64,000 bases of DNA from Polyangiales bacterium (GCA_044229975.1 JBGARZ010000001.1:672001-736000), one strand, 5' to 3'; positions 29,504 to 51,049 are shown, counted from the stretch's first letter. Program-made: numbers and translations. The notes: generated from the letters alone by a model not told the origin.

Positions 29504-31135
29504 TCACTGCCCCCTCGCGACCTCCCAGGTCAGCTTGTAGCGCGCGAGGTATTTCCGTAGGCGATCAGCGTCGTTGACCGAGGTCTTGCCGGTGCGCGAG
29601 ACCGCGAAGAGAGCGCGACCCGCGGCCGAGAGTGTCGGCGAGGCCCGACAGACGCGGATCACCTCCGCGAGCTGCGGGCGGTCGAAGCGGTCGAGCGACG
29701 CGGCGCCATCGTCCCCGAGCGCCGAGCGCAGGAGGTCGTCGTCGGCCGATGGTTCGGTGGGCGAACGACCGCCTGCGATGCGCCAGCGGGCGCGGAGGCG
29801 AGCGACCTCCTCGTCGACGCCATCGACGTCGATGCGGCCGCCGCGAGACAGCGTCGCGAGGCGCGTGACGGCGGCCGAGAAGTCGCGGAAGTTTCCGGTC
29901 CAGAGAGCGTCGGCAGAGGTGGCGAAGGCGACGAAGCGGGCGCGGGCCTCGCGGCTCATGGTGACGTTGACGCCCAACGCGCGGCCGCACTGGGCGAGCT
30001 CGAAGTCGAGGTTGGGGTCGATGTCCTCGGGACGATCACGCAGGCCGGGGAGCGCGAAGGTCCACAGCTCGATGCGCGCGAGCAGGTCTTCGCGGAAGCG
30101 GCCCTCGGCGACGCGGGCGACGAGGTCGCGGTGGGTTCCGGCGATGAGCTGGAAGTCGCTCTTCACCTCGCGGTCGCTGCCCATGGGGCGGAAGCTCTTC
30201 TCCTCGACCGCGCGCAGGAGCATCGCCTGCTCGTCGAGACCGAGCTCGGCGATCTCGTCGAGGAAGAGCACGCCGCCGTCGGCCTTGCGGAGGAGGCCCT
30301 CGCGCTCGGACGCCGCGCCGGTGAAGGCGCCCTTGGCGTGGCCGAAGAGCGTCGACATCGCGCCGTCGCCCCGCAGCGTCGCGCAGTTGACCTCGACAAA
30401 CTCCCCGGCGACCTGCCGCCTGGTCTTCTTGAGTGCGTAGATGCGGCCTGCGAGCTGGGACTTCCCGGCGCCCGTCGGGCCGGTGAGCAGCATCGGGGCG
30501 CGCGAGGCGACGGCCACGCGCTCGATGCGGTCGATGAGCGTGTTGAAGGCGGCGTTGCGGGTGTCGATGCCGGCCTTGAGGAGCCCGGTGCGGGCGCGGG
30601 CCTCGGCGGCGAAGCGCGACGCGAGGCGGTCGTAGCGGGAGAGGTCGAGGTCGATGGCGCGCCAGGTTCCGACGAGGCCGGCGTCGCGGGTGGCGCGGGT
30701 GGGGGGCGCGGTCTGGAGCAGGGTCGCCGGGAAGTGTCGCGACTCGGTGAGCAGGAAGAGAACGATCTGCGCGACGTGCGTGCCCGTCGTGATGTGAACG
30801 AGGTAATCCTCGCGCTCGGGGTCGAAGGGGTAGGCGCGCGCGAAGTCATGGAGGGCGGCGTAGACCTGTTCGAGGTCCCACGGGTCGGCGATGTCGAGGG
30901 GGACGAGGTTGACCGCCGTCTCGGGGGAGACGGAGCCGATGTCGCGGCGGATGGTCTTGGCGAGGTTGAGGTAGTGCGGCTGGTGCAGGAGCTCGAAGCG
31001 CGAGACCAGCAGGTCGGGGTGCTGACAGACGGCGACGGAGGGGCGCCAGCGCTCCCAGCGCTTGTCCTGGGCGCCCGAGTCGAGCATCGGGCCGATCAGA
31101 CCGAGGACCACGGTGGGCTTCTTCGTCTTCGCCAT
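29504..31135 (-). CDS. rtcR: RNA repair sigma54 activator RtcR (CARF-like + AAA+ + HTH)
   Basis: RWERWRPSV, DPWD, HITTGTHVAQI, GPTGAGKS, GAFTGA, NDADRLRKYL; divergent from rtcBA. Confidence 0.96.
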   Translation of the reverse strand: MAKTKKPTVVLGLIGPMLDSGAQDKRWERWRPSVAVCQHPDLLVSRFELLHQPHYLNLAKTIRRDIGSVSPETAVNLVPLDIADPWDLEQVYAALHDFARAYPFDPEREDYLVHITTGTHVAQIVLFLLTESRHFPATLLQTAPPTRATRDAGLVGTWRAIDLDLSRYDRLASRFAAEARARTGLLKAGIDTRNAAFNTLIDRIERVAVASRAPMLLTGPTGAGKSQLAGRIYALKKTRRQVAGEFVEVNCATLRGDGAMSTLFGHAKGAFTGAASEREGLLRKADGGVLFLDEIAELGLDEQAMLLRAVEEKSFRPMGSDREVKSDFQLIAGTHRDLVARVAEGRFREDLLARIELWTFALPGLRDRPEDIDPNLDFELAQCGRALGVNVTMSREARARFVAFATSADALWTGNFRDFSAAVTRLATLSRGGRIDVDGVDEEVARLRARWRIAGGRSPTEPSADDDLLRSALGDDGAASLDRFDRPQLAEVIRVCRASPTLSAAGRALFAVSRTGKTSVNDADRLRKYLARYKLTWEVARGQ

Positions 31136-31218
31136 TGGGATAGGGCGGCTTGATACCATGGGATCAGACCGGGACGCTCGCGCGGCTCGATGGGCGGGAA
31201 GCATAGAGATTCGAGAGG

Positions 31219-31233
31219 TGGCACGAGGGCTGC
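31219..31233 (+). promoter_or_regulatory. Sigma54 promoter of rtcBA (TGGCACG-N4-CTGC)
   Basis: Canonical -24/-12 spacing, followed by AGGAGG RBS and the rtcB ATG. Confidence 0.85.
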
Positions 31234-31263
31234 GATGGGGGTTGCCCAGGAGGCACACGAGCC

Positions 31264-32493
<1,230 letters not shown>

Positions 32494-32499
32494 AGGGCC

Positions 32500-33537
32500 A
32501 TGAACGACTGGATCACGGTGGACGGGTCGGAGGGTGAGGGCGGCGGGCAGATGCTGCGCTCGTCGCTCTCGCTCTCGCTCGTCACGGGCAAAGCCTTCCG
32601 CATGGTGCGGGTGCGCGCGGGTCGGCAGAAGCCGGGGCTGCTTCGGCAGCACCTGACCTGCCTGCGCGCGGCGGCAGAGGTGAGCGGCGCGACCATCGAA
32701 GGGGCCGAGCTCGGCTCGCAGTCGGTGAGCTTCGCGCCGGGCCCGGTGCGCGGCGGCGACTACGCGTTTCGCATCGGGTCGGCGGGCAGCACCATGCTGG
32801 TGATGCAGACGGTGTTGCCCGCGCTGCTGCGCGGGGTGGCGCCGTCGACGCTGCTCTTCGAGGGCGGGACGCACAACACCATGGCGCCGTCGTTCGACTT
32901 CATCGAGCGGGTGTTCGTCCCGGCGGTCAACCGCATGGGGCCGACGGTGACGTGCGCGCTGGCGCGGGCGGGTTTCTACCCGGCGGGGGGTGGGCGAGCG
33001 ACGGTGACGGTGACGCCGTCGGCGTCGCTGGCGCGCATCGAGCTGATGGAGCGCGGCGCGGTGGTGTCCCAGCGCGTGGTGGCGCGCGTCGCGGGCCTGG
33101 GCGACGGCATCGCGCGGCGCGAGGTGCTGGCGGCGGGCGAGGTGCTCGGCTGGGGCGAGGAGTGCCTGCGGGCGGAAGCGCTTCCGAGGGAGTGGGGGCC
33201 GGGCAACGTGGTGCTGGTGGAGGTGGTCTGCGAGCGCGGGACGGAGGTGTTCATGGCGTGCGGCGAGAAGGGTCGCAGCGCCGAGAGCGTGGGCGCCGCC
33301 GTGGCAAAGGAGGCGAAGGCGTGGCTCGACGCCGGGGTGCCCGTAGACGAACACCTCGCGGACCAGTTGTTGTTGCCGATGGCGCTGGCCGGCGGCGGGC
33401 GCTTCATGACGACGGAGCCGTCGCTGCACACGACGACCAACGCGAAGATCATCGAGCGCTTTCTGCCGGTGACGGTCACCATGGAGGCGCGCGGCGAGCG
33501 GGCGTGGGAGGTCCGCGTCGAGGGGCCGCGGGGGTGA
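32500..33537 (+). CDS. rtcA: RNA 3'-terminal phosphate cyclase
   Basis: GEGGGQMLRS, PGLLRQH, GGTHN, GFYPAGGG, HLADQL, SLHTTTN. Confidence 0.97.
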   Translation: MNDWITVDGSEGEGGGQMLRSSLSLSLVTGKAFRMVRVRAGRQKPGLLRQHLTCLRAAAEVSGATIEGAELGSQSVSFAPGPVRGGDYAFRIGSAGSTMLVMQTVLPALLRGVAPSTLLFEGGTHNTMAPSFDFIERVFVPAVNRMGPTVTCALARAGFYPAGGGRATVTVTPSASLARIELMERGAVVSQRVVARVAGLGDGIARREVLAAGEVLGWGEECLRAEALPREWGPGNVVLVEVVCERGTEVFMACGEKGRSAESVGAAVAKEAKAWLDAGVPVDEHLADQLLLPMALAGGGRFMTTEPSLHTTTNAKIIERFLPVTVTMEARGERAWEVRVEGPRG

Positions 33538-34936: not shown

Positions 34937-35824
34937 GTGCCGCTCCCTCCCCCTCGCCCGTCGCGCCTCAAGCTCCTCCCCGAAGCCGCCCTGGTCGCGA
35001 CCTTCCTCGGCATGGCCGCCTATGAGGCCGCCGAGGTGTTCTTCCTCGAAGCGCCCACCGGGTCGGCGGTGTCGCTCACCATCGTGCTGCACTCGTTGCA
35101 GGTGCTCGCCATCCTCGCGGGCGCCGCGGGGCTGCTGCGCGCGCTGCGACAGCGGGCCGCCCACGAAGAAGCGCTCGCCCGCATGGTGGAGAAGGTTCTC
35201 TTCGCGCAGGAACAGGAACGCCGCCGCGTCGCCTACGAGCTGCACGACGCCGTCTCGCCGCTCATCGTGAGCGCCAAGCAGCACGCCGAGACCTGCCGCG
35301 ACGCGTGGTCGGATGACGACACCCGCGCGCGGTCCGAGCTCACCCGCGGCATCGACCGGCTCCAACAGGCGATCGTCGAGACCCGGCGCATGCTCCGCGC
35401 GCTGCGCCCCTCGGACGTCGACGCCGACGGGCTCGCCGTCGCGGTGCGCCGCTGCCTCGACGAGTCCGCCGAAGAGTCCGGTTGGACTGTCGCCTTCGAG
35501 CACGACCTCACCGACGACCGGCTCCCTGCAGCCGTCGAGATGGCGGCGTTTCGCATCGCGCAGGAGGCCGTTCGCAACGCCGCGAGGCACGCCCGCGCCG
35601 AGCGCGTCGAGGTGCGGCTCCGACGCGACGGAGACGCCTTGCGAGTGCGGGTGCACGACGACGGCGTGGGCTTCGCGGCGGGCGACACCCCCTCGCGCGG
35701 ACTCGGACTGGTGAGCATGCGCGAGCGGGCGAGCCTCCTCGGCGGGCAGTGCGTGGTGGAGAGCGGGCGGGGCCGCGGGACGACGGTGGACGTCTCGCTG
35801 CCGTTGCGTGCGGAGCAAGCGTGA
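34937..35824 (+). CDS. Sensor histidine kinase (HisKA_3, NarX-like)
   Basis: Two TM helices, QEQERRRVAYELHD, QEAVRNAARHA, DDGVGF, GLGLVSMRERA. Confidence 0.93.
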   Translation: MPLPPPRPSRLKLLPEAALVATFLGMAAYEAAEVFFLEAPTGSAVSLTIVLHSLQVLAILAGAAGLLRALRQRAAHEEALARMVEKVLFAQEQERRRVAYELHDAVSPLIVSAKQHAETCRDAWSDDDTRARSELTRGIDRLQQAIVETRRMLRALRPSDVDADGLAVAVRRCLDESAEESGWTVAFEHDLTDDRLPAAVEMAAFRIAQEAVRNAARHARAERVEVRLRRDGDALRVRVHDDGVGFAAGDTPSRGLGLVSMRERASLLGGQCVVESGRGRGTTVDVSLPLRAEQA

Positions 35825-35886
35825 CCGCTTCACCCGGCTACGGACCGGGGTTGGTCGCGTCCCGCGCCTGCACCGCCGGGCAAGCG

Positions 35887-37811
35887 ATCGGCATAGGGGC
35901 GGCCCCTCCGTGAGGAGGAGCCGACCCCTGCCACACCACCGGACAAGCGGGTCCGCATCCGGCGGTTCGGACGGTTGAGGTCACCTCCGTAGCCTCCACA
36001 ACCCGAGGCTGTCGAACCAACTGGGTCGGAGCGTGAAGCCCAGGCGGAGCGCGCGGCGCCACCAGCCACCGGCCGAGGCCACCGACTTCCAGCTTGCTTC
36101 GTCCCCTTGTCCAAGGGCGCGCAGCGACTGGTAGATCGTGATGCCTCGCTTCCAGTGCTTCAGTTGCACCATCCGAAGGCGACGGCGAATCCACTCGTCC
36201 AGCCCCTCGAAGAGCTTCGTCTGCTGCGTGAGGCGGTAGTACGCCCACCACCCACGCAGGTACCGATTCAGCCTCTCGATCAGTTGCACCAGACTGCGAC
36301 CCGCCGTCCGGCTCGTGAGCTCCCGCACACGCGCCTTGAACGCCTCTTGCGACTTCGCCGACACCCCTCGCTTCACTTCTCCGCCGTGCGCGTAGAACTG
36401 AAAGCCCAGGAACTTCCGTCCCTTGACCGGCGCCACCGCGCTCTTGGACTCGTTGACCCGGAGGTGCAGCGACGCGAAGCGCTCCCGCAGGAATGCCATC
36501 ACTCGCTCGCCCGCCCGCTCCGACCTCACGTACACGTTGAGGTCGTCGGCGTAGCGCACGAACGCGTGACCGCGCTGCTCCAACTCCTTGTCCACTTCGT
36601 CCAGAAGCACGTTCGCCAGCAGTGGTGACAGCGGGCCGCCTTGCGGCGTTCCCTCCGTCCGCGCCGTCGCGATCCCGTCGGCCATCATCCCGGCCTCCAG
36701 GTAGCGACGGATGAGCCTCAGCAGGCGCTTGTCCTCGATGCGTTTGGCCAACCGGCCCATCAGCACGTCGTGGTTCACGCGGTCGAAGAACGCTTCGAGG
36801 TCCACGTCCACCACCACCCCGCGCCCCTCCTGGACGTAGCGCTGTGCGACGACAATCGCGTCGTGCGCGCTGCGCCCCGGGCGGAACCCGTAGCTGTGCT
36901 GTGAGAAGGTCGGATCGAATCGAGGCTGAAGCACCTGGAGGATCGCCTGTTGGAGGAGACGATCCAGGGCCGTCGGGATGCCGAGAGTCCTCGTGCCGCC
37001 CGACGCCTTGGGGATCTCGCACGATCTCACCGGCTGCGGTTGGTAGCGCCCCGCGAGGAGGTCCTCGCGCAGACGCGGCCAGTGCACACGCAGGTGGGCC
37101 GCGAGATCCTTCGTCTCCATCCCGTCCACTCCGGGGCTGCCCCGGTTGCTCTGCACCCGCTGGAGCGCCCGCAAGAGGTTGTCCCTTCCGAGGACCGCCT
37201 CCAGCAAGGCGCTGGTGCCCGAGTGCTCGTCTCCTTTCGTCGCCGTGGGGTCTTCCTCGCGGGGCTGCGCGTTGAGGGCTTCACCCTCGTCGCGCCTCCC
37301 TCGCCCCGGTGGTGTCCCGGGCATCTGAGGCGGTTCCCTTTTGAGACTCATGGTCGATGCACCCTCCCTTCCGTTTGGTCCTTTGCGCGGCCGTCGGCCC
37401 TTCGTCGTGGCGTTCCCCGTCGTGTCTCCGACGTCGTTGGCGACGTCGGCGCGGGAGCCCAGGTTTTCGGACGCGCTACTACGACCTCTGCTGACTTCCT
37501 GCGCCGCACGTTGGTGTGTGTCGCCCTTTCAGGCGTGAAGCAGGATCTCCCCGGGTAAGAAACGCTGGCTTTCACGGCGCAACCGCCCGATCTACCGCAC
37601 GGTCTCTTGGTCATTGGAGCTTCGCGGCTCCTTGCCCGCTCGCCCCAGACCGCACGGCCTCACATCGGCTTTCTGTCCGTCGGCTCGCCGTTTCGCGTCG
37701 GGCTTCCTTCAGACAGTCCGTTGCCTCGCTGCCCTTGCCTCTCGCGTGGATCGTCATGACCTACTTTCCCGGGGACTTGCACCCCGAAGCCAACGCCCAT
37801 GCCGGGCGCAC
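35887..37811 (-). mobile_element. Complete class IIC group II intron (1925 nt)
   Basis: 5' end GTGCGCCCGGCATGGG at 37811; domain V GAACCGCCGGATGCGGACCCGCTTGTCCGGTGGTGT with CGC triad (~35933-35968); domain VI ending CCTATGCCGAT at 35887; RT ORF inside. Confidence 0.93.
35981..37351 (-). CDS. ltrA: Group II intron reverse transcriptase/maturase (no endonuclease domain)
   Basis: GSPGVDG, RTLGIPT..DR, SYGFRPGRS, DLEAFFD, GTPQGGPLSPLLAN, YADD, FLGF, domain X LRGWWAYY. Confidence 0.97.
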   Translation of the reverse strand: MSLKREPPQMPGTPPGRGRRDEGEALNAQPREEDPTATKGDEHSGTSALLEAVLGRDNLLRALQRVQSNRGSPGVDGMETKDLAAHLRVHWPRLREDLLAGRYQPQPVRSCEIPKASGGTRTLGIPTALDRLLQQAILQVLQPRFDPTFSQHSYGFRPGRSAHDAIVVAQRYVQEGRGVVVDVDLEAFFDRVNHDVLMGRLAKRIEDKRLLRLIRRYLEAGMMADGIATARTEGTPQGGPLSPLLANVLLDEVDKELEQRGHAFVRYADDLNVYVRSERAGERVMAFLRERFASLHLRVNESKSAVAPVKGRKFLGFQFYAHGGEVKRGVSAKSQEAFKARVRELTSRTAGRSLVQLIERLNRYLRGWWAYYRLTQQTKLFEGLDEWIRRRLRMVQLKHWKRGITIYQSLRALGQGDEASWKSVASAGGWWRRALRLGFTLRPSWFDSLGLWRLRR

Positions 37812-38017
37812 AAAGCAGGCGCCCCTCCGGGGCTTCCGGAAGCCATCGACCGCACGATGGGTTCTTGTTGAGTGCCTGGAATGCACTTCGTGACGCTCGT
37901 GGCGACCTTCCGAAAGCCCCGCTGGGGCGCTTGCTTTCGCTTGCCCGGGGTGCAGGCGCGAGGCGCGACCAACCCCGGTCCGAAGGCAGGCCGAGCGAAC
38001 CGGAGAGACGAGCCGTG

Positions 38018-38614
38018 ATGCGCGTGTTGCTGGTCGACGACCACCCCGTGGTCCGCGAGGGCCTTCGCAGCATGCTGGTGAGCGACGGCGTCGAGGTCGT
38101 CGCCGAGGCCGCGACCGGCGCCGACGCGGTGTCCCTCGCGCGGCAGCACGCGCCCGACGTGGTGCTGCTCGACATGCAGCTCCCGGACATGGAGGGCGTC
38201 GCGGCGCTGCGGCAGATGAAGCAGACCGGTGTGCGCAGCGCGGTGCTCGTCCTGAGCATGCACGACGACCCCGCGATGGTGCGCCGCGCGATGGACGCGG
38301 GCGCCTCTGGCTACCTCCTGAAAGGAACCAACCGCGGCGATCTCCTCGCCGCGATGCGGGCCGTGTGCGAGGGAGCGACGGTCATCGACCCGACCCTCCA
38401 GGCGGCGCTCGCACCGACCGACGACGCGCTCACCGCGGTCGAGCGCGAGGTGCTCCGACTGCTCGCCGAGGGGCTCACCAACCGCGAGATCGCCGAGCAG
38501 CGGAAGTGGAGCATCGCGACGGCGAAGAAGTACGTGCAGCGCGTGCTGGAGAAGCTCGGCGCCACCGACCGCACGCAGGCCGTGGCCGTCGCGATACGAC
38601 GCGGGCTCGCGTAG
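38018..38614 (+). CDS. NarL/LuxR family response regulator
   Basis: VDDHPVVREGL receiver, LTAVEREVL..GLTNREIA..KLGATDRTQA HTH. Confidence 0.95.
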   Translation: MRVLLVDDHPVVREGLRSMLVSDGVEVVAEAATGADAVSLARQHAPDVVLLDMQLPDMEGVAALRQMKQTGVRSAVLVLSMHDDPAMVRRAMDAGASGYLLKGTNRGDLLAAMRAVCEGATVIDPTLQAALAPTDDALTAVEREVLRLLAEGLTNREIAEQRKWSIATAKKYVQRVLEKLGATDRTQAVAVAIRRGLA

Positions 38615-38765
38615 TCGACCCGTCGGCCTGAGCCGACGAACGCGCGCGGCATCGACGTCCGCGCCGCGGACTCTTCCCCATCAGGCTCGACAATGGGAGG
38701 TCGAGGGACAAGGTGCGTGTACGGTCGCGGGGGCCACACGCCAGAGAGGAGGATCGACAACACCG

Positions 38766-40790
<2,025 letters not shown>

Positions 40791-40925
40791 CGGGGGTGAA
40801 TGTTTCAAAGGCCCGCTTGGAGGCGAAGCGGTCTACCCCCGCAGTTCGAGACGAGGGCCGTCGGCGGCCTGAGCCGGACCCCGAGCGTGAGCGAGGAGGG
40901 CACAACCTCGGGTTGCACACCGGCA

Positions 40926-41140
40926 CATCGATTGGAGAGACCCCTACCCCTCTTCGATCGATGGGTTGCATCGGTTGGAGAGACCCCCACCCCTCTTCGA
41001 TCGATGGGTTGCATCGGTTGGAGAGACCCCCACCCCTCTATTGCCGACACCGCGCATCGTGCGAAGAGACCCCTACCCCTCTCCCATCGATGCGTCGTTT
41101 CGGTTGGAGCGACCCCTCCTCTCTGCCAACACGATCCCGT
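40926..41140. repeat. Five 43-nt tandem units (core GAGACCCC(T/C)ACCCCTCT)
   Basis: Unit starts at 40926, 40969, 41012, 41055, 41098; units 1-2 nearly identical, later units diverge. Confidence 0.88.
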
Positions 41141-41380
41141 CGACCGGCGGCGTCGCGGTCGCGTCCCTCCGGGCAGGTTCGTCGACCGCGGGCGTCGCGG
41201 GCGCTCCCCGCCGGGTAAGGTCGTCGACCGCGGGCGTCGCGGGCGCTCCCGCCGGGTAAGATGCCGACCGTCGGCCGCGCGGTCGCTTCCCTTCGACCCT
41301 AAAGCGAGGTCGAACTAACGCCCGCGGTCGACGACCTTACCCGGAGGGACGCGACCGCGACGCCCGCAGTCGACGACCTC
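41139..41380. repeat. Three ~42-nt tandem units (GTCGACCGCGGGCGTCGCGG...CCGGGTAAGGTC) plus an inverted copy
   Basis: Unit starts at 41139, 41181, 41223; reverse-complement copy ~41319-41380 after hairpin TTCGACC-N9-GGTCGAA. Confidence 0.85.
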
Positions 41381-41424
41381 CAGCGCTTCCCCTCGCCTGG
41401 ACGAGCGGCAGCGCGAAGCACCCA

Positions 41425-41742
41425 ACCCTCTACGACTGGGTCGCGGCCTACCTCGACGCGGGCGCCCACCTCGACGAGCTCCTCGCGGCCCGCGCCGACG
41501 CCGCGCCCGGATCACGCGCCGACGCCGGTGCCCTGCGCGCCGCCACGCTCGGGCTCATCGGGCGCTTCCGCGCCGGGCTTGCCGACGAGCTGACGGCCAA
41601 CCCGAAGCTGCCGCGCGACCTCGACACGAAGGTCTTCGCCTACCTCGATCTGCTGACCGACCTGCGCGCGAAGGGCAGCACCGACGAGGCCCCCGCCCCG
41701 CCCGCCGATCCGACGCCCGCCGACCCGACGCCGCCCGCCTGA
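41425..41742 (+). pseudogene. 5'-truncated gene remnant without a start codon
   Basis: Frame 41260-41742 is open with no ATG/GTG/TTG; the distal part reads TLYDWVAAYLDAG...LPRDLDTKVFAYLDLL with strong coding bias; absent from the ORF track. Confidence 0.6.
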
Positions 41743-41859
41743 CGCTCCATCCCCTGGACGAGCCTGCCACCGCTGGACGTCGGCGGCGATCCGTGGCGCG
41801 CTCGTGTGGGCAGTTCGGTCTCACCATCCATCGCAGACGACGCGGCGGTACCATCGCTC

Positions 41860-42771
41860 ATGGCGAAGAAAGCCCCCGCACCGCCCGCACCGCACCGCGT
41901 GATCGGCCGCCACCGCACCGGCGTCGACGGAGTCTCCTTCGCCGACGCGCTGCGCGTGCTCAGCACCGCCATGGAAGAGCCGCAGGTCGCGCTCTGGGAC
42001 GTCACCGCGGAGGCCGTCGCGCTCGGCCGAGTCGGCACCGGCGACGGCTGCGTCTGCTGGTACGCCGCGATGGCGCCCGACGGCCGCACCGTCGCCGCGG
42101 GCTTTGGCGACCTCACGCTCCGGCTATGGGACGTCGACTCCAGCAAGGTCCGCACGCTCGCCACGCCGGGTGGCATCGTGGCGTCGCTCGCGTGGTCGGC
42201 GGACTCGTCGCGGTTGTTCACCGGCAACTGCGGCGACAACACCGTGCGCCTGTGGGACGCCGCGACCGGCGCCGTCGTCGCGGAGGGCAAGACGAAGAAG
42301 AGCGCGACGTGGTTCGTGGCGATGACCCGCGACGCGCACCGCGGCTTCTCGGGCGCTGGTGACAAGCTCGTGCACGTGTGGGAGCCCGCGACGGGGCGCG
42401 AGGTCGGGGCGCTCTCGGGTCACACGGGGAAGATCCTCGGGCTCGCGGTCTCCCACGACGGCAAGCGGCTCGCCTCGGCCTCGCAGGACCGCACCGCGCG
42501 CGTCTGGGACATCGAGACCAGCACGCTTATCGCCTCGCTCGAAGGTCACGACAAGCAGGTCACCGGCGTCGCGATGTCACCCGACGGTGCGCGCGTCGCG
42601 ACGGCCTCGACCGACGCCACCCTCCGTCTCTGGAACGCCGCCACCGGCACCGAAGAGCGTCGCCTCTCGCTGGGTGCAACGACCGCATCGTCCGTGGCGT
42701 ACGCGCCCGATGGCGGGTCGATCGTCGCGGGCTGCGCCGACGGCACGGTGCGGCTGTTCGCGCTCGACTGA
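41860..42771 (+). CDS. WD40 repeat beta-propeller protein
   Basis: Repeated GH...SxDxTxRxWD units. Confidence 0.92.
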   Translation: MAKKAPAPPAPHRVIGRHRTGVDGVSFADALRVLSTAMEEPQVALWDVTAEAVALGRVGTGDGCVCWYAAMAPDGRTVAAGFGDLTLRLWDVDSSKVRTLATPGGIVASLAWSADSSRLFTGNCGDNTVRLWDAATGAVVAEGKTKKSATWFVAMTRDAHRGFSGAGDKLVHVWEPATGREVGALSGHTGKILGLAVSHDGKRLASASQDRTARVWDIETSTLIASLEGHDKQVTGVAMSPDGARVATASTDATLRLWNAATGTEERRLSLGATTASSVAYAPDGGSIVAGCADGTVRLFALD

Positions 42772-42785
42772 GCCGCCACGCTCGC

Positions 42786-43181
42786 TCACTCGACGACTAC
42801 GCGCACCTCGACGTCCGCGCCGACCCCCCGCAACGCGACGGCCGCGGTCTCCGCCTCCCCGTAGTTCGCGAAGCGCCCGATCTCGCACGGCGCCGAGTCG
42901 ACGACCGCCTTCGCCTGGGCCATCGACACCGAGAGCGCGACGCGCACCCGCGCGATCAACAGCTCGCGGAAGCGCCCCACCGCGCGCAGGTCAACGACGT
43001 GCGGGAGGTAGTAGGTGCTGCCCCACTCTGCCCGGGGCGGCCCGCCGTAGGCCGCCGCGGCGCCGCCCCAGTCGTCGGGGCCATCGCCGACCGCGAGGCG
43101 CGCCCGGAGCGCTTCGACCAGCACGAGCACCTCCTCCCGCGTCAGCCCGGCGATGATGGCGGTGAGCTCCTCGACGGTCAT
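42786..43181 (-). CDS. Divergent ribosomal protein L7/L12-like protein
   Basis: N-terminal helix pair LTREEVLVLVEAL; C-terminal AQAKAVVDSAP...EAETAAVALRGVGADVEVR resembles bL12 CTD. Confidence 0.65.
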   Translation of the reverse strand: MTVEELTAIIAGLTREEVLVLVEALRARLAVGDGPDDWGGAAAAYGGPPRAEWGSTYYLPHVVDLRAVGRFRELLIARVRVALSVSMAQAKAVVDSAPCEIGRFANYGEAETAAVALRGVGADVEVRVVVE

Positions 43182-43187
43182 GGTCGC

Positions 43188-43877
43188 TCAGCGCTTGAGC
43201 ACCGCGAGGATGCGCGCCTTCACCTCATCGCTCACCCACGTCGGAATCAGCTCCGCGACCGACCCCTGCGCCGCCGCGATCACGCCCTCGCGAATCGACC
43301 GCTTCGTCCCCGCGTAGGCCCCGCGCGGGTGCGCGGCCAGCGTCGCCAGCACCGCCCTCGCCCTCGCCTCGGGCTCGGCCGCCACCTCATCGAGCAGCCC
43401 CAGCCGCAGCGCCTCCGCGGGCGAGTGCAGCCCCGCGCCCAGCAGCACCTGCTCGCGCGCCGTCGACGGGATGCGCGCGTTGACGATGCCCCAGATGCGC
43501 GGCGGGAATTGCAGCCCCAGCGCCACCTCGTTGAGCCCGTGGCGGGCCTTCTCGTCGGCGCCGGACACGCGCCAGTCGCAGCACTGCGTGAGCACGCAGC
43601 CGCCCGCGATGGCGTGCCCCTCGATGAGCCCCACGACGGGCGCCGGGTGCAGGTACAGCTCGGTGATGGTGTCCTCCAGCAACACCAGGAACCGCGCCAT
43701 GCCGTCGGCGTCGAGCGAGGCCAGCTCTTTGAGGTTGAGGCCGGCGGAGAAGGTTCCGTTGGCGCCGCGCAGGAGGATGGGATCAGACCCCGCGGCCCGC
43801 ACCGCCTCGCGCAGGTTGGTCAGCACCACCGTGCTCAGGGCGTTGCGCCCGGCCCCTTCGATCACGACGTCGATCAT
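43188..43877 (-). CDS. Enoyl-CoA hydratase/isomerase family protein
   Basis: RNAL, FSAGLNL, GHAIAGG, GLNEVALG, EALRLGLLDEV. Confidence 0.9.
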   Translation of the reverse strand: MIDVVIEGAGRNALSTVVLTNLREAVRAAGSDPILLRGANGTFSAGLNLKELASLDADGMARFLVLLEDTITELYLHPAPVVGLIEGHAIAGGCVLTQCCDWRVSGADEKARHGLNEVALGLQFPPRIWGIVNARIPSTAREQVLLGAGLHSPAEALRLGLLDEVAAEPEARARAVLATLAAHPRGAYAGTKRSIREGVIAAAQGSVAELIPTWVSDEVKARILAVLKR

Positions 43878-43983
43878 GGGACCGGGCGATATCACACCCC
43901 GCGCCGCAGCGCTGATGGATCACTGCTTGGGTGGTGTCCGACTTGGGACACTGATTTCTCTCCGTCTCCAAAGTAGGACAAGT

Positions 43984-44224
43984 CGCCGCGTTCACGCCGG
44001 AGTTCACCGTGCCGCCCCCGCGCCCACCGCGCTCGGTTCACTCCGGGCTATTTCACGCGGATCGCCCCGCCGAAGCGGGGCTCAGGAGGCCGAGGGCACT
44101 TCATGGTCCCTGGGCGGAGGCACGGAGCCCCGCTTCGGCGGGGCGATCCGCGTGAAATAGCCCGGAGTGAACCGAGCGCGGTGGGCGCGGGGGCGGCACG
44201 GTGAACTCCGGCGTGAACGCGGCG
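43984..44224. repeat. Perfect 100-bp inverted repeat with 41-nt spacer (REPIN-like, family B)
   Basis: 43984-44083 is the exact reverse complement of 44125-44224; each arm contains hairpin GCCCCGC-CGAA-GCGGGGC. Confidence 0.95.
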
Positions 44225-44265
44225 GATTCTCAACTTGGGACACTGCGCCTCAAACTCGGACACTA

Positions 44266-44790
44266 CTACTGCTTGATGAGCTCGACCTCGAGCTGGATCT
44301 TCACCTCGTCGCCGACGAGCACGCCGCCGGCTTCGATGGCGCTGTTCCAGGTCATGCCGAAGTCCGAGCGCTTGATCTTCGTCGAGGCCGAGCCGCCGAT
44401 GCGGGTGTAGCCCCACGGGTCCTTGTGCTCGCCGGTGATGTCGGTGACCGCGAGGACGACCTCGTGGGTGACGCCGTGGATGGTGAGGTCGCCCGTGACC
44501 GCGATGCCGTCACCGCTGGCCTTGGCGCTCTTCGACTTGAAGGTGATCGCCGGAAACTTCTCCACATCGAAGAAGTCGGCGCTGCGGAGGTGCGCGTCGC
44601 GCTTCTCCTCGCGGGTGTTGATGGAGGCCACGTCGAGGGACACGCTCGCCGTGGTGGCGCCGGGGTTCGCCGGGTCGTAGCTCACCTCGCCGCTGAACTT
44701 CTGAAACTCCCCGCGCACGTTGGACACCATCAGGTGGCGAACGGAAAACGCGGCGTGGGAGTGCGACAGGTCGATGACGTAGCTGCTCAT
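44266..44790 (-). CDS. yceI: YceI family polyisoprenoid-binding protein
   Basis: ID.SHS..FSVRHLMVSNVRGEF, RDAHLRSADFFD, GDLTIHGVT, RSDFGMTWN. Confidence 0.93.
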   Translation of the reverse strand: MSSYVIDLSHSHAAFSVRHLMVSNVRGEFQKFSGEVSYDPANPGATTASVSLDVASINTREEKRDAHLRSADFFDVEKFPAITFKSKSAKASGDGIAVTGDLTIHGVTHEVVLAVTDITGEHKDPWGYTRIGGSASTKIKRSDFGMTWNSAIEAGGVLVGDEVKIQLEVELIKQ

Positions 44791-44969
44791 GGTGGTGCTC
44801 TTTTCTTGGGCTGACGCGCGCCAACTGCTGGCGTTCCTCTCGTCAGGCAGCGCGAACTTGGACCGTTGCTCGCCCGCGCACTACTCCCTCGAAAGGCAAC
44901 GCCACGTTGCCGCAACAGCAACACCGCCAACCCTCCCCGCAGGGCGTCGTGATAGCGTCCGACACCGCC

Positions 44970-46511
44970 GTGAGCGACGCGCCCGATCCGACCCCTACCA
45001 CGGTTTCTGCGCGGCTCCGACTGCACCTCGTGCCGTGGCTCATCGCCCTGCTCGCGCACGCGCCGGGGCTCGGCGGCGGCTTCGTCCTCGACGACGTGCG
45101 CGCCATCACCGGTCACCCCGGCGTCAACGGTCACGGCGCCCTGTCCATGGTCTTCAGCCGCACCTTCTGGGGGCAGGCGCTCGGCACTCCGCCCGCGTCG
45201 TGGCGGCCGCTCACGACGCTGTCCTTCGCCCTCGATGCGCGCGTCTTCGGCCTCTCGCCGGGGCCGATGCACGTCGAGTCGCTGCTGTGGTTCCTGGCGC
45301 TCGTGGCCGTCGCCCATCGCTTCGCGCGCGACCGCCTCGCGCCCACCGCGGCGCTGCTCGCCACCTGCCTCTTCGCGGCGATGCCGCTGCACGTCGAAAA
45401 CGTCGCCTCGCTCGTCGGCCGCGCCGACGTCATGGGCCTGCTCTTCGGGCTCATCGCCCTGCGCGCCTCTGCCACCACGCGCGGCCTCGCGCTCAGCGCC
45501 CTCGCCACCGCCCTCGCGCTGCTCTCCAAGGAGAGCGCGCTCAGCCTGCTCGGCGTGGCGGGCGTGCTCGGGTTCTTCCCGCGCGCTGGCGAGACCGCCC
45601 GCGATGGCCACAAGCGCACCGCCGTCGTCGCGGTCGTCGCCGCCCTCTACCTCGCCGCCCGCCTCCTCACGAGCGGAACCGTCGCCCGCTGGTGGGCCCC
45701 CGACGACGTCCTCGCAGGCGCCGCGCCGTGGCAGCGGGTCGTGTACGCCGTCGAGTACCTGAGCCGCGCGCTGCGTCTCGTACTGGCGCCGCTCGACCTG
45801 TGCACGGGGCGAAAGTTCGCGATGTTGTGGCGACCGTCGACGCCGCTCACGGCGCACTTCGCGGTGGGCGTGGTCTGCCTCGCGGCGGGCGCGTGGTCGT
45901 CGTGGGTGGCGTGGCGCGCGAAGAAGGCCCCGTGGGCGCTGTGCATCGCGATGACGGGGGTGATGTTCACGGGGCTCGCGTGGAAGGTGCCGGAGGCGAT
46001 GGCCGATCGGTTCTTCCTGGCGCCGACGCTCTTCCTCGCGCTGCTGGTGGCCGAGCCGACGCTCGCGTGGTGGCGGGAGGGCGGCGCGCGTCGGGCGCTG
46101 GTGGCGCTGCTGGTGACGATCAACCTCGCCGCGGCGGGGTTTCTGTCGACGCGATGGCACGACGACACGACGCTCTACGAACACTCGGTCGCGGCGTGCC
46201 CGGACTCGGCGCACAACCACTTCCGCTACGCGGGGCTGCTGGAGTCGCGGCGGGCGTACGAAGAGTCGGCGTGGCACGCGGCGCTCGCGTACGAGGCGAT
46301 CCGGCGCTTCCCTGGGCGGTGGGAACACCCCGCGGTGGAGGCCGAGGAGACGCTCCCGCCGAGGGAGCGTGTGCGGCAGATGCACCGGCTGCTGCGGGTG
46401 GAGCGGCAGGAGTTCGAGTGGCGCAACGCGGTGGCGGGCTATGCGCACCGCAACGGGATGCCGGGCGCGGCCGCGACGATCATGGCGGGGTTTGGTCCGC
46501 CGCGACGGTGA
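44970..46511 (+). CDS. TMTC-like GT-C membrane glycosyltransferase
   Basis: GFVLDD, WRPLTTLSFALD, PLHVENVA..VGRAD, SKES, ADRF motifs; helical C-terminus. Confidence 0.7.
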   Translation: MSDAPDPTPTTVSARLRLHLVPWLIALLAHAPGLGGGFVLDDVRAITGHPGVNGHGALSMVFSRTFWGQALGTPPASWRPLTTLSFALDARVFGLSPGPMHVESLLWFLALVAVAHRFARDRLAPTAALLATCLFAAMPLHVENVASLVGRADVMGLLFGLIALRASATTRGLALSALATALALLSKESALSLLGVAGVLGFFPRAGETARDGHKRTAVVAVVAALYLAARLLTSGTVARWWAPDDVLAGAAPWQRVVYAVEYLSRALRLVLAPLDLCTGRKFAMLWRPSTPLTAHFAVGVVCLAAGAWSSWVAWRAKKAPWALCIAMTGVMFTGLAWKVPEAMADRFFLAPTLFLALLVAEPTLAWWREGGARRALVALLVTINLAAAGFLSTRWHDDTTLYEHSVAACPDSAHNHFRYAGLLESRRAYEESAWHAALAYEAIRRFPGRWEHPAVEAEETLPPRERVRQMHRLLRVERQEFEWRNAVAGYAHRNGMPGAAATIMAGFGPPRR

Positions 46512-46549
46512 TCCATTCGTGGTCCCCGACCCGTGGGCCGCTGACAGAG

Positions 46550-46738
46550 CGGGGTTGGTCGCGTCCCGCGCCTGCACCACCGAGCAAGCGAACGCAGGCG
46601 CCCCTTCGGGGCTTTCGGAAGGGCGCTTCGGTCATCCAGCAGCCGGCGCGTTGTGTTGGCCGATCGCTTCGGGAAGCCCCGGAGGGGCGCCTGCGTTCGC
46701 TAGCCCGGTGGTGCAGGCGCGGGACGCGACCAACCCCG
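46550..46738. repeat. Intact REP/REPIN-like palindromic element (family A)
   Basis: 72-nt arms 46550-46621 and 46667-46738 with a few mismatches, 45-nt spacer; same arm sequence as the intron-invaded copy. Confidence 0.92.
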
Positions 46739-46819
46739 GTCCCTCAGCGGGTCATGCCCGTTGACACCGATGCTCAACCATTGGCGACGGAGCGGGTCGT
46801 TGCCCATGATGCGCGGACC

Positions 46820-47293
46820 ATGACCCACCCCACCGAAGACTTCGCCCCGACCCTCAACGCCCAGCGCGACGGCTGGAACGCTGCCATGGGCGTCCGCTAC
46901 GTCCGCGCCACCCTCGACGAGGTGGTCGCCGAGTGGACCATCGGCCCGCAGCACCTCCAGGCGTACGGCATCGTCCACGGCGGCGTGTACGCGGGCATCA
47001 TCGAGACGATCGCGTCCATCGGCGCGGCGCTCAACGCGATGCCGCGGGGACAGTCCATCGTGGGGTTGGAGAACAGCACGTCGTTCATCCGGGCGGTGCG
47101 GGGTGGGACGCTGCGGGCGACGGCGACGCCCATCACCCGCGGGCGTCGCTCGCAGGTGTGGGAGGCGACCGTCACCGACGAGGAGGGGAAGATCGTCTCG
47201 ACGGGGCGGGTGCGGCTCTTGGCGCTGGACGGGGGGTCGCCCATCGCGGGCGAGACGGTCACGGTGAAGGTGGGCGCGGCGCAGGAGGGGTGA
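46820..47293 (+). CDS. PaaI family thioesterase
   Basis: QAYGIVHGG...ET, hot-dog fold strand pattern. Confidence 0.9.
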   Translation: MTHPTEDFAPTLNAQRDGWNAAMGVRYVRATLDEVVAEWTIGPQHLQAYGIVHGGVYAGIIETIASIGAALNAMPRGQSIVGLENSTSFIRAVRGGTLRATATPITRGRRSQVWEATVTDEEGKIVSTGRVRLLALDGGSPIAGETVTVKVGAAQEG

Positions 47294-50828: not shown

Positions 50829-50916
50829 CGGAGAGAGTGGGATTCGAACCCACGGTACCCTTTTGGAGTACACCGCATTTCCAGTGCGGCGCCTTCGACC
50901 ACTCGGCCATCTCTCC
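50829..50916 (-). tRNA. tRNA-Ser (GGA)
   Basis: GGAGAGA acceptor, anticodon arm CCGCA-CTGGAAA-TGCGG, long variable arm, GGTTCGAATCC; CCA not encoded. Confidence 0.96.
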
Positions 50917-50964
50917 CAACGGCGTCGGTCGCGGGGACCGACGCCGGGAACTTCTATGATTGAG

Positions 50965-51049
50965 CGGAGAGCAAGGGATTCGAACCCTTGGTACCTTTCG
51001 GCACACCTGATTTCGAATCAGGCACCATCGACCACTCGGACAGCTCTCC
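50965..51049 (-). tRNA. tRNA-Ser (CGA)
   Basis: GGAGAGC acceptor, anticodon arm CCTGA-TTCGAAA-TCAGG, long variable arm, GGTTCGAATCC; CCA not encoded. Confidence 0.96.

Follow-up and report, generated by a model that had tools for sequence, protein, structure and literature searches.

Published accounts place the insertion sites of class IIC group II introns just after terminators or comparable stem-loops (PMC1702495, PMC8643678, PMC7923331), and a CGC triad together with an AGGAA motif is given among the features of the class (PMC1702495). In the published account of the E. rectale IIC structure, EBS1 consists of A184-A185-A186-G187, follows C183 and pairs with CTTT, and the base after EBS1 pairs with a T at position −6 (PMC10190682). 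The hairpins of other mobile systems can also serve as targets, as reported for IIC-attC introns, which use them at a fixed base and strand (PMC7923331). Dispersed palindromes are landing sites for ISPpu9, ISPpu10 and a P. putida group II intron, two of whose nine copies in KT2440 are tabulated at REPs (PMC1525189), and tnpA genes flanked by long inverted repeats, which are also found as dispersed dimers, are described as the TIRtron arrangement (PMC3733652). Save for that tabulated row, group II or class C introns in REP, REPIN, MITE or IS200-type repeats were not found as a target class in the literature within reach of our search, subscription journals lying mostly outside it.

Here, we describe an intron in a 64,000-nt stretch of DNA from a Polyangiales bacterium (GCA_044229975.1 JBGARZ010000001.1:672001-736000; hereafter the window), where it occupies one arm of a dispersed two-arm palindrome. 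The intron and its target comprise the following parts:

37811→35887, minus strand: class IIC group II intron of 1,925 nt, starting GTGCG... and ending ...CGAT
35981..37351, minus strand: intron-encoded RT/maturase ORF, 456 aa, with a YADD motif
35935..35968, minus strand: domain V with the IIC-type CGC catalytic triad, as read in the sequence
35846..35886, minus strand: 3′ exon, the outer part of the invaded repeat arm, with IBS3 = C at 35886
37812..37815, minus strand: IBS1 of the invaded arm, CTTT, read from the sequence
37821..37833, minus strand: short DNA hairpin, GCCCC-GGA-GGGGC, which precedes the splice site by 9 nt

By its sequence, the element is a real class IIC group II intron that has recently expanded. 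Its 5′ boundary at 37811 is preceded by ...CTTT, and its 3′ boundary at 35887 is followed by C. In a profile search the RT/maturase matches TIGR04416 with 417.9 bits against a cutoff of 300, while among PDB entries it is closest to the GsI-IIC RT (E = 2.6e-128), followed by 7uim_D (E = 3.7e-93), both far above 6me0_C and LtrA, and no C-terminal endonuclease extension is evident on its 456 aa. The AGGAA bulge motif of domain I can be read in the intron, and the Rfam model of group II D1–D4-3 (RF02001) matches 37730–37560 with 105.7 bits (E = 1.4e-20), domain I being aligned across all 170 positions of this compact model without a large insertion; IIC introns have no EBS2 subdomain. BLAST recovered five full copies in the genome, four identical and one at 99.95%, plus three 5′ ends and three 3′ ends at contig edges, which gives eight insertions in total; the ORF is intact in all five full copies, as judged by HMM length. 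Two other RT-like ORFs (G000:C38:259913-260548 and C39:340099-340455) are unrelated in DNA to the intron copies.

The general organization is that of B.h.I1, GsI-IIC and the E. rectale intron, with a 4-nt EBS1 in the ID3 loop, a single EBS3–IBS3 pair, a DNA stem-loop a few bases upstream, the CGC triad and an RT without endonuclease; the E. rectale EBS1, AAAG, pairs with a CTTT identical to the IBS1 of the present intron (PMC10190682). The differences concern the target, which lies inside a dispersed two-arm palindrome and not a typical terminator, has an evident stem of 5 bp, where that of the E. rectale structure is about 12 bp long, and holds all eight copies within one repeat family despite hundreds of hairpin + YYTT|C sites. 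The mechanism would be the hairpin targeting already known for IIC introns, applied to a target that is unusual but mechanistically ordinary. As in IIC-attC introns, a class C intron uses the hairpin of another mobile system, but that hairpin is not an attC, and IBS1/IBS3 are CTTT/C versus TTGT/T. Identity with an IIC-attC intron was rejected because insertion is at CTTT/C in a Y1-linked palindrome, not at TTGT/T on the attC bottom strand, and close relatives of our intron carry other EBS1 loops and targets, so no dedicated lineage is apparent. Compared with the REP insertions of P. putida, all eight copies here sit at one base of the repeat and follow a readable RNA–DNA pairing rule.

The guides through which the intron would read this target are:

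37624..37639, minus strand: ID3 stem-loop GCGG-GCAAGGAG-CCGC, taken from the RF02001 structure line
37630..37633, minus strand: EBS1, AAGG, placed by covariation and in the register of E. rectale A184–G187
37592, minus strand: predicted EBS3, the G of a GTAGAT motif, pairing with the +1 C of the 3′ exon

An earlier note on this DNA had proposed that AAGG in this loop is EBS1 and pairs with CTTT through one wobble, and both parts of the proposal are supported. The motif is present at minus-strand 37633–37630 within the stem-loop (37639–37624), RF02001 folds the segment as a stem-loop with AAGG aligned to the consensus loop 'aaaa', and the loop reads C-AAGG-A, a register identical to that of the E. 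rectale EBS1. Against CTTT, AAGG forms A-T, A-T, G·T and G-C, and against CGTT the third pair becomes G·G.

Related introns were gathered by genome searches and an AAGG-loop scan of public genomes/metagenomes (49 and 96 matches). In 84 rows from the resulting 196 loci, the loop came together with a canonical intron start and an exon of 10 nt or more. Seven loci were set aside because their exons were short (three), their start was not GT (two) or they had no canonical 5′ end (two), and 70 rows were left once duplicates and our own copies had been removed. Taking one intron per distinct EBS1 (n = 14, our own included), 48 of 56 EBS1/IBS1 positions are Watson-Crick, as in GGAU/ATCC, UCAU/ATGA, CAAC/GTTG and AACG/CGTT, and position −3 pairs in 14 of the 14 cases. 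None of 100,000 shuffles reaches 48 (mean 16.9, maximum 38), and in registers displaced by 1, 2 or 3 positions the number of Watson-Crick pairs is 16, 10 or 21, respectively. The covariation spans four positions, within the 3–4 bp of an EBS1–IBS1 pairing of class IIC. The assignment of EBS1 to AAGG is well supported by sequence comparison because this covariation beats both the shuffles and the shifted registers. In three further copies of G433, GCUA pairs with TAGC.

The covariance fold, a check that the earlier note had suggested, places AAGG in the loop, and EBS3 is predicted at G37592 by covariation. An EBS3 G goes with a +1 C at all eight of our 3′ ends and in L274 and L280, and an A goes with a +1 T in L048, L073, L075 and L127; six of the seven other loci with both features readable agree, L010 being the exception. 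Some of the gathered AAGG-loop IIC introns are ORF-less or internally deleted while their ends are intact, namely L048, L073, L075 and L127, with about 350 nt from the EBS1 loop to domain V, and L082 and L109, with about 25 nt. In L127/L188, L128 and L175, an intron 3′ end is followed almost directly by the 5′ end of an intron, which is what circles or tandem copies would give.

The repeat family comprises 23 arms with an inner hairpin, arranged as 11 two-arm elements and one solo arm. Eight arms are invaded, and the free ones are 11 CTTT|C, one CTTT|T, one CCTT|C and two CGTT|C; a CGTT half-element (C32:8712) and a CTTT half (C34:360116), both without the inner hairpin, were left out of the occupancy counts, together with nine stand-alone outer-unit hairpins. 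Two uninvaded features of the window bear on what follows:

37905..37977, plus strand: free partner arm of the invaded element, with a hairpin at 37916–37928, IBS1 CTTT at 37934–37937 and the +1 C at 37938
46550..46738, both strands: uninvaded two-arm repeat copy with CGTT in both arms, at minus 46594–46591 and plus 46694–46697

All eight insertions lie at the same base, after hairpin and CTTT|C, in one arm per element, and each 5′ exon ends with the hairpin GCCCC-NNN-GGGGC, five bases and CTTT. The hairpin at 37821..37833 is likely, from its sequence conservation, to be the recognised stem, the 5′ exons keeping the stem with a variable loop in eight of eight cases and the relatives lengthening it on both sides. 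In all eight, this 5-bp hairpin stands 9 nt upstream of the junction, within the class IIC range of 3–11 nt. Single arms fold no more stably than shuffles (z from −0.95 to +0.64, with competing structures), and a terminator scan gave three sites versus 1.4 ± 1.3 in shuffles, one of them being the free arm at 37905..37977.

A generic hairpin joined to the EBS1 rule is insufficient to account for this distribution because 457 intergenic non-repeat sites with a stem of at least 5 bp placed 1–7 nt before YYTT|C, 75 of them CTTT|C, are not invaded, as counted from rough gene calls that are 88% coding. Of 94 CTTT|C sites, 19 are repeat arms, and the chance of all eight hits landing on these is p = 7e-7. 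Something in the repeat itself therefore likely contributes, for instance the exact spacing, the spacer sequence or a long inter-arm stem. The base after EBS1, which pairs with a −6 T in the E. rectale structure, finds a T at −6 in seven of the eight invaded arms. A short two-arm palindrome family with related inner sequence (C4:76779/76854, C11:600575, C36:424214/424289) carries CTTT|C only 1–2 nt past the stem, and none of its members listed here is invaded, which hints that spacing matters.

The arms themselves point to a transposase. In two relatives, G001:C223 (L022:941-1575) and G007:C794 (L230), full arms of the same repeat enclose an intact 143-aa Y1 tnpA, the two copies being 92% identical, and arms surround tnpA at four of the 30 tnpA loci examined, two with full arms and two, in G435, with partial similarity. 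The relatives' TnpA scores 64.6 bits against NF033573 (IS200; cutoff 55) and carries the Y---Q--HH signature given for TnpA-Y1 subclass 1.2 (PMC6006769). A RAYT-type transposase was rejected (NF047646, 21.9 bits versus a cutoff of 80), and, unlike REPIN/RAYT systems, the arms show no visible GTAG tag. Long inverted repeats of their own also surround many other tnpA loci in the family. Judging by sequence, the invaded repeat likely derives, as a non-autonomous form, from a Y1 (HUH) transposase element with inverted repeats at its ends, because the same arms enclose tnpA in G001 and G007. In the intron's own genome, the homologues of the cognate tnpA are distant, at about 50% identity, and none of the four Y1 loci there is flanked by the invaded repeat family.

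Related IIC introns with other EBS1 loops (L270, L275 and L274 in G433, L280/L008 in G012, L009 in G015 and L019 in G006) also seem to occupy the arms of two-arm palindromes or of Y1-flanking repeats, and that of G015 follows a similar short hairpin at a shifted position. Residence in palindrome or Y1-repeat arms may be a family-wide habit.

What an AAGG guide tolerates can be read from 56 other AAGG introns, which are not independent and fall into 14 clusters at 85% identity. Position −1 is T in 54 and −2 is T in 52 of the 56; position −3 is C in 38, T in 16, G in two and A in none, and −4 is C in 32, T in 19 and G in five. Relative to positions −5 to −8, C is enriched at −3 (p = 1.7e-10) and purines are depleted (2/56 versus 30/224; one-sided p = 0.025), both on these non-independent rows, whereas G alone is not significantly depleted (2/56 versus 23/224; p = 0.19). 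The exon end CTTT occurs in 10 of the 56 and CGTT in none. A G·G at −3 is found in L038 (TGTT) and L083 (CGTG), that is, in two of the 14 lineages, and L083, with its second mismatch, is possibly decayed. From these comparisons, G·G at −3 is likely to be unfavourable for an AAGG guide, and, having been seen twice, to be tolerated at times.

The earlier note had gone further, suggesting that EBS1 explains which arms are invadable and that one polymorphic base of the repeat may act as an immunity switch. The first suggestion is not supported by the counts, 11 of the 19 CTTT|C arms and the CCTT|C arm being empty. As for the second, both arms of the copy at 46550 do carry CGTT, a G·G against EBS1, and this copy is the sole intact CGTT element across the nine genomes of the genus searched. 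Its two arms are best counted once because they belong to one element and arms of one element often share variants (e.g. C34:219k, C4:3.4k). When arms were classified against occupancy, all eight insertions were at CTTT, with 8/19 CTTT|C arms invaded versus 0/2 CGTT arms (Fisher p = 0.37 by arms; p = 3/11 = 0.27 by elements), so that occupancy neither supports nor refutes a CGTT block.

We consider it unlikely that a T-to-G change at −3 made these arms non-invadable and that the 46550 element is empty for this reason. Such a switch would agree with 0/2 invaded CGTT arms against eight of eight insertions at CTTT, with the depletion of purines at −3, with the pairing of −3 in all 14 distinct-EBS1 cases and with the restriction of CGTT arms to the genome rich in this intron family. 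Against it, the CGTT class is a single element, and two other two-arm CTTT|C elements, a solo arm and the lone, perfectly complementary CCTT|C arm are likewise empty. The G·G introns L038 and L083 and the non-significant depletion of G alone also speak against a block, as do the relatives, in which −3 varies between T, C and A over 46 arms in five genomes, four of which gave no arm intron in the searches run here. The claim that CGTT is a poorer target is partly supported, by the scarcity of purines at −3; the depletion of G in particular is not significant. The −3 change likely lowers invasion instead of blocking it. A weaker target could account for the empty CGTT copy, and incomplete filling explains it equally well.

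The exons bear on how the copies spread. Among the eight insertions, variant bases set the 5′ exons apart within 6–15 nt of the junction, these variants match the partner arm of the same element in two cases, and the spacers all differ. At C34:360615, the intron is separated from the remainder of the arm by a 479-nt palindrome of a second family, so that only the +1 C of the usual 3′ exon is kept. Repeated retrohoming is favoured over DNA-level copying because of these junction-near differences and this unrelated 3′ exon. The simplest order of events at C34:360615 is palindrome first and intron second, which would make the 3′ arm unneeded. The 479-nt palindrome itself (G000:C34:360136-360614) lies inside the target arm and, if the intron is disregarded, has CTTT on either side; its core is repeated at a dozen or more sites and, at C23:67598-67936 (L001), borders an IS200-type tnpA. 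At this spot, two Y1-linked repeat families and the intron are nested.

Spread by recombination or gene conversion between repeats, or carriage inside the repeat by a Y1 transposase, would account for near-identical copies confined to one repeat family, a family linked to an HUH transposase in relatives. We hold it very unlikely in view of the exon variants, two of which match the partner arm, the differing spacers and the insertion with an unrelated 3′ exon; the cognate tnpA, moreover, has no close homologue in the genome (about 50% identity), and the intron ORF is intact in every full copy. In the retrohoming account, an AAGG intron would have spread recently into single-stranded DNA of a palindromic repeat, reading the short hairpin, IBS1 and the +1 C of the arm. 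EBS1 would act as a permissive rule, with a pyrimidine at −3 strongly preferred and G disfavoured yet still allowed, and not as a chooser among matching arms, and the lagging-strand template would decide which arm was entered. We give a probability of about 0.7 to this overall explanation, a class IIC intron with an AAGG/CTTT guide that likely retrohomes into single-stranded palindrome, under a permissive EBS1 and with the arm set by strand.

The strand component bears directly on the free partner arm. The earlier note had predicted the junction at 37937/37938 as a free target, and the plus strand does read CTTT at 37934–37937 followed by C at 37938. The arm is sequence-competent and oriented opposite to the intron, and to that extent the prediction stands. 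The arm is not special, however, as nearly every partner arm qualifies and none of the eight is invaded: the free partner arm is CTTT|C in seven of the eight invaded elements and CTTT|T in the other, and no element is doubly invaded, a pattern that eight random hits would give with p = 0.09. Four public DNA runs (Logan contigs X1–X4) checked over 35700–47000 all contain the intron, X1 over its full length, and cover the host flanks to a depth of about 2–4. Among the 15 of 33 joints listed, none falls at 37937/37938 or at the CGTT arms, which at such a depth cannot show absence.

Class C introns are described as preferring the lagging-strand template (PMC8919778). By codon-corrected GC skew over ±300 kb, seven of the eight intron sense strands lie on the G-richer strand (|z| 0.9–2.6; binomial p = 0.035), the skew being opposite at C23:555779 and on the small contig C16. 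With dnaA 330 kb to its left, the plus-strand insertion at C23:555779 would fit the lagging-strand model if oriC adjoins dnaA, although the skew lacks the expected switch at dnaA (left +0.012, right −0.013, both |z| 1.1) and calibration by the polarity of rplB, rpoB and rpsB was uninformative or contrary. At about even odds, we infer that the strand sets the choice, the intron entering the arm on the lagging-strand template while the opposite arm, such as that at 37937/37938, stays free. If so, eight of the 11 favourably oriented arms in two-arm elements would be filled, and 37937/37938 would be the disfavoured arm.

Single-arm occupancy could instead stem from selection or transcription and not from replication, an account we find somewhat unlikely. 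On this account, elements with a second copy would be purged, the two copies forming an inverted repeat of 2 kb with about 150 nt between them, or else transcription would open the strand that the intron enters. In keeping with this are the lack of any doubly invaded element, the equal numbers of orphan 5′ and 3′ ends (three and three), which speak against hidden double insertions, and the co-orientation of about six of the eight introns with the upstream gene, on rough gene calls. Opposed to it, the window's intron lies antisense to the sensor-kinase and response-regulator genes on either side of it, whereas its free arm is sense, and chance may account for the pattern (p = 0.09). The invaded repeat lies between a sensor-kinase-like and a response-regulator-like ORF, both on the plus strand within window 34937-38614. 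Elsewhere in the window, the translations suggest at 29504-33537 a sigma-54 regulator resembling RtcR, transcribed divergently from ORFs that resemble rtcB and rtcA, and 50829-51049 holds two minus-strand tRNA genes with long variable arms (Rfam RF00005). Short repeats at G000:C11:434121 and 439872 look similar to CRISPR direct repeats.

The relatives place the arms in a wider frame. In the genus, a pattern search over eight relatives gave 46 distinct arms, which came from five of them and were hand-tallied after merging two overlapping pairs, with CTTT in 18, CCTT in 12, CATT in 10, CCCT in four, and CCAT and CTCT in one each; no CGTT arm appeared in the eight relatives, whose genomes are fragmented and 64–94% complete. 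Position −3 is variable throughout the repeat family because these arms carry T, C or A there. In G007, a deleted related intron 5′ end lies at the equivalent arm position, with IBS1 CCTT, and an intron fragment on another contig has an AAGG loop; the two pieces need not be one copy but provide, as sequence matches, independent support for site and guide.

On a broader reading, which we consider quite doubtful, Y1/HUH inverted-repeat ends and class IIC introns would be engaged in a sequence-level arms race. Positions −3 and −2 of the arms would diversify over the genus (CTTT, CCTT, CATT, CCCT, CGTT) because mismatch or purine variants escape resident introns, and the introns would retarget by EBS1 change. 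The same reading has the intron also recognizing a repeat-specific structure, perhaps a long stem formed by two arms, which would explain why eight of eight insertions ignored more than 400 other hairpin sites.

With its 23 near-identical arms on both strands and its single-base variants at −6, −3 and +1, this genome is a natural panel for the target rules of class IIC introns, and the comparative set provides an empirical tolerance profile for an AAGG guide, in which −1 and −2 are nearly fixed, −3 is a pyrimidine and −4 is loose. The puzzle it poses is the confinement of the intron to one repeat family despite many hairpin + YYTT|C sites. A structural determinant specific to the repeat, if there is one, would take the model based on the E. 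rectale structure further, and transposon ends would then serve class IIC introns as renewable safe landing sites.
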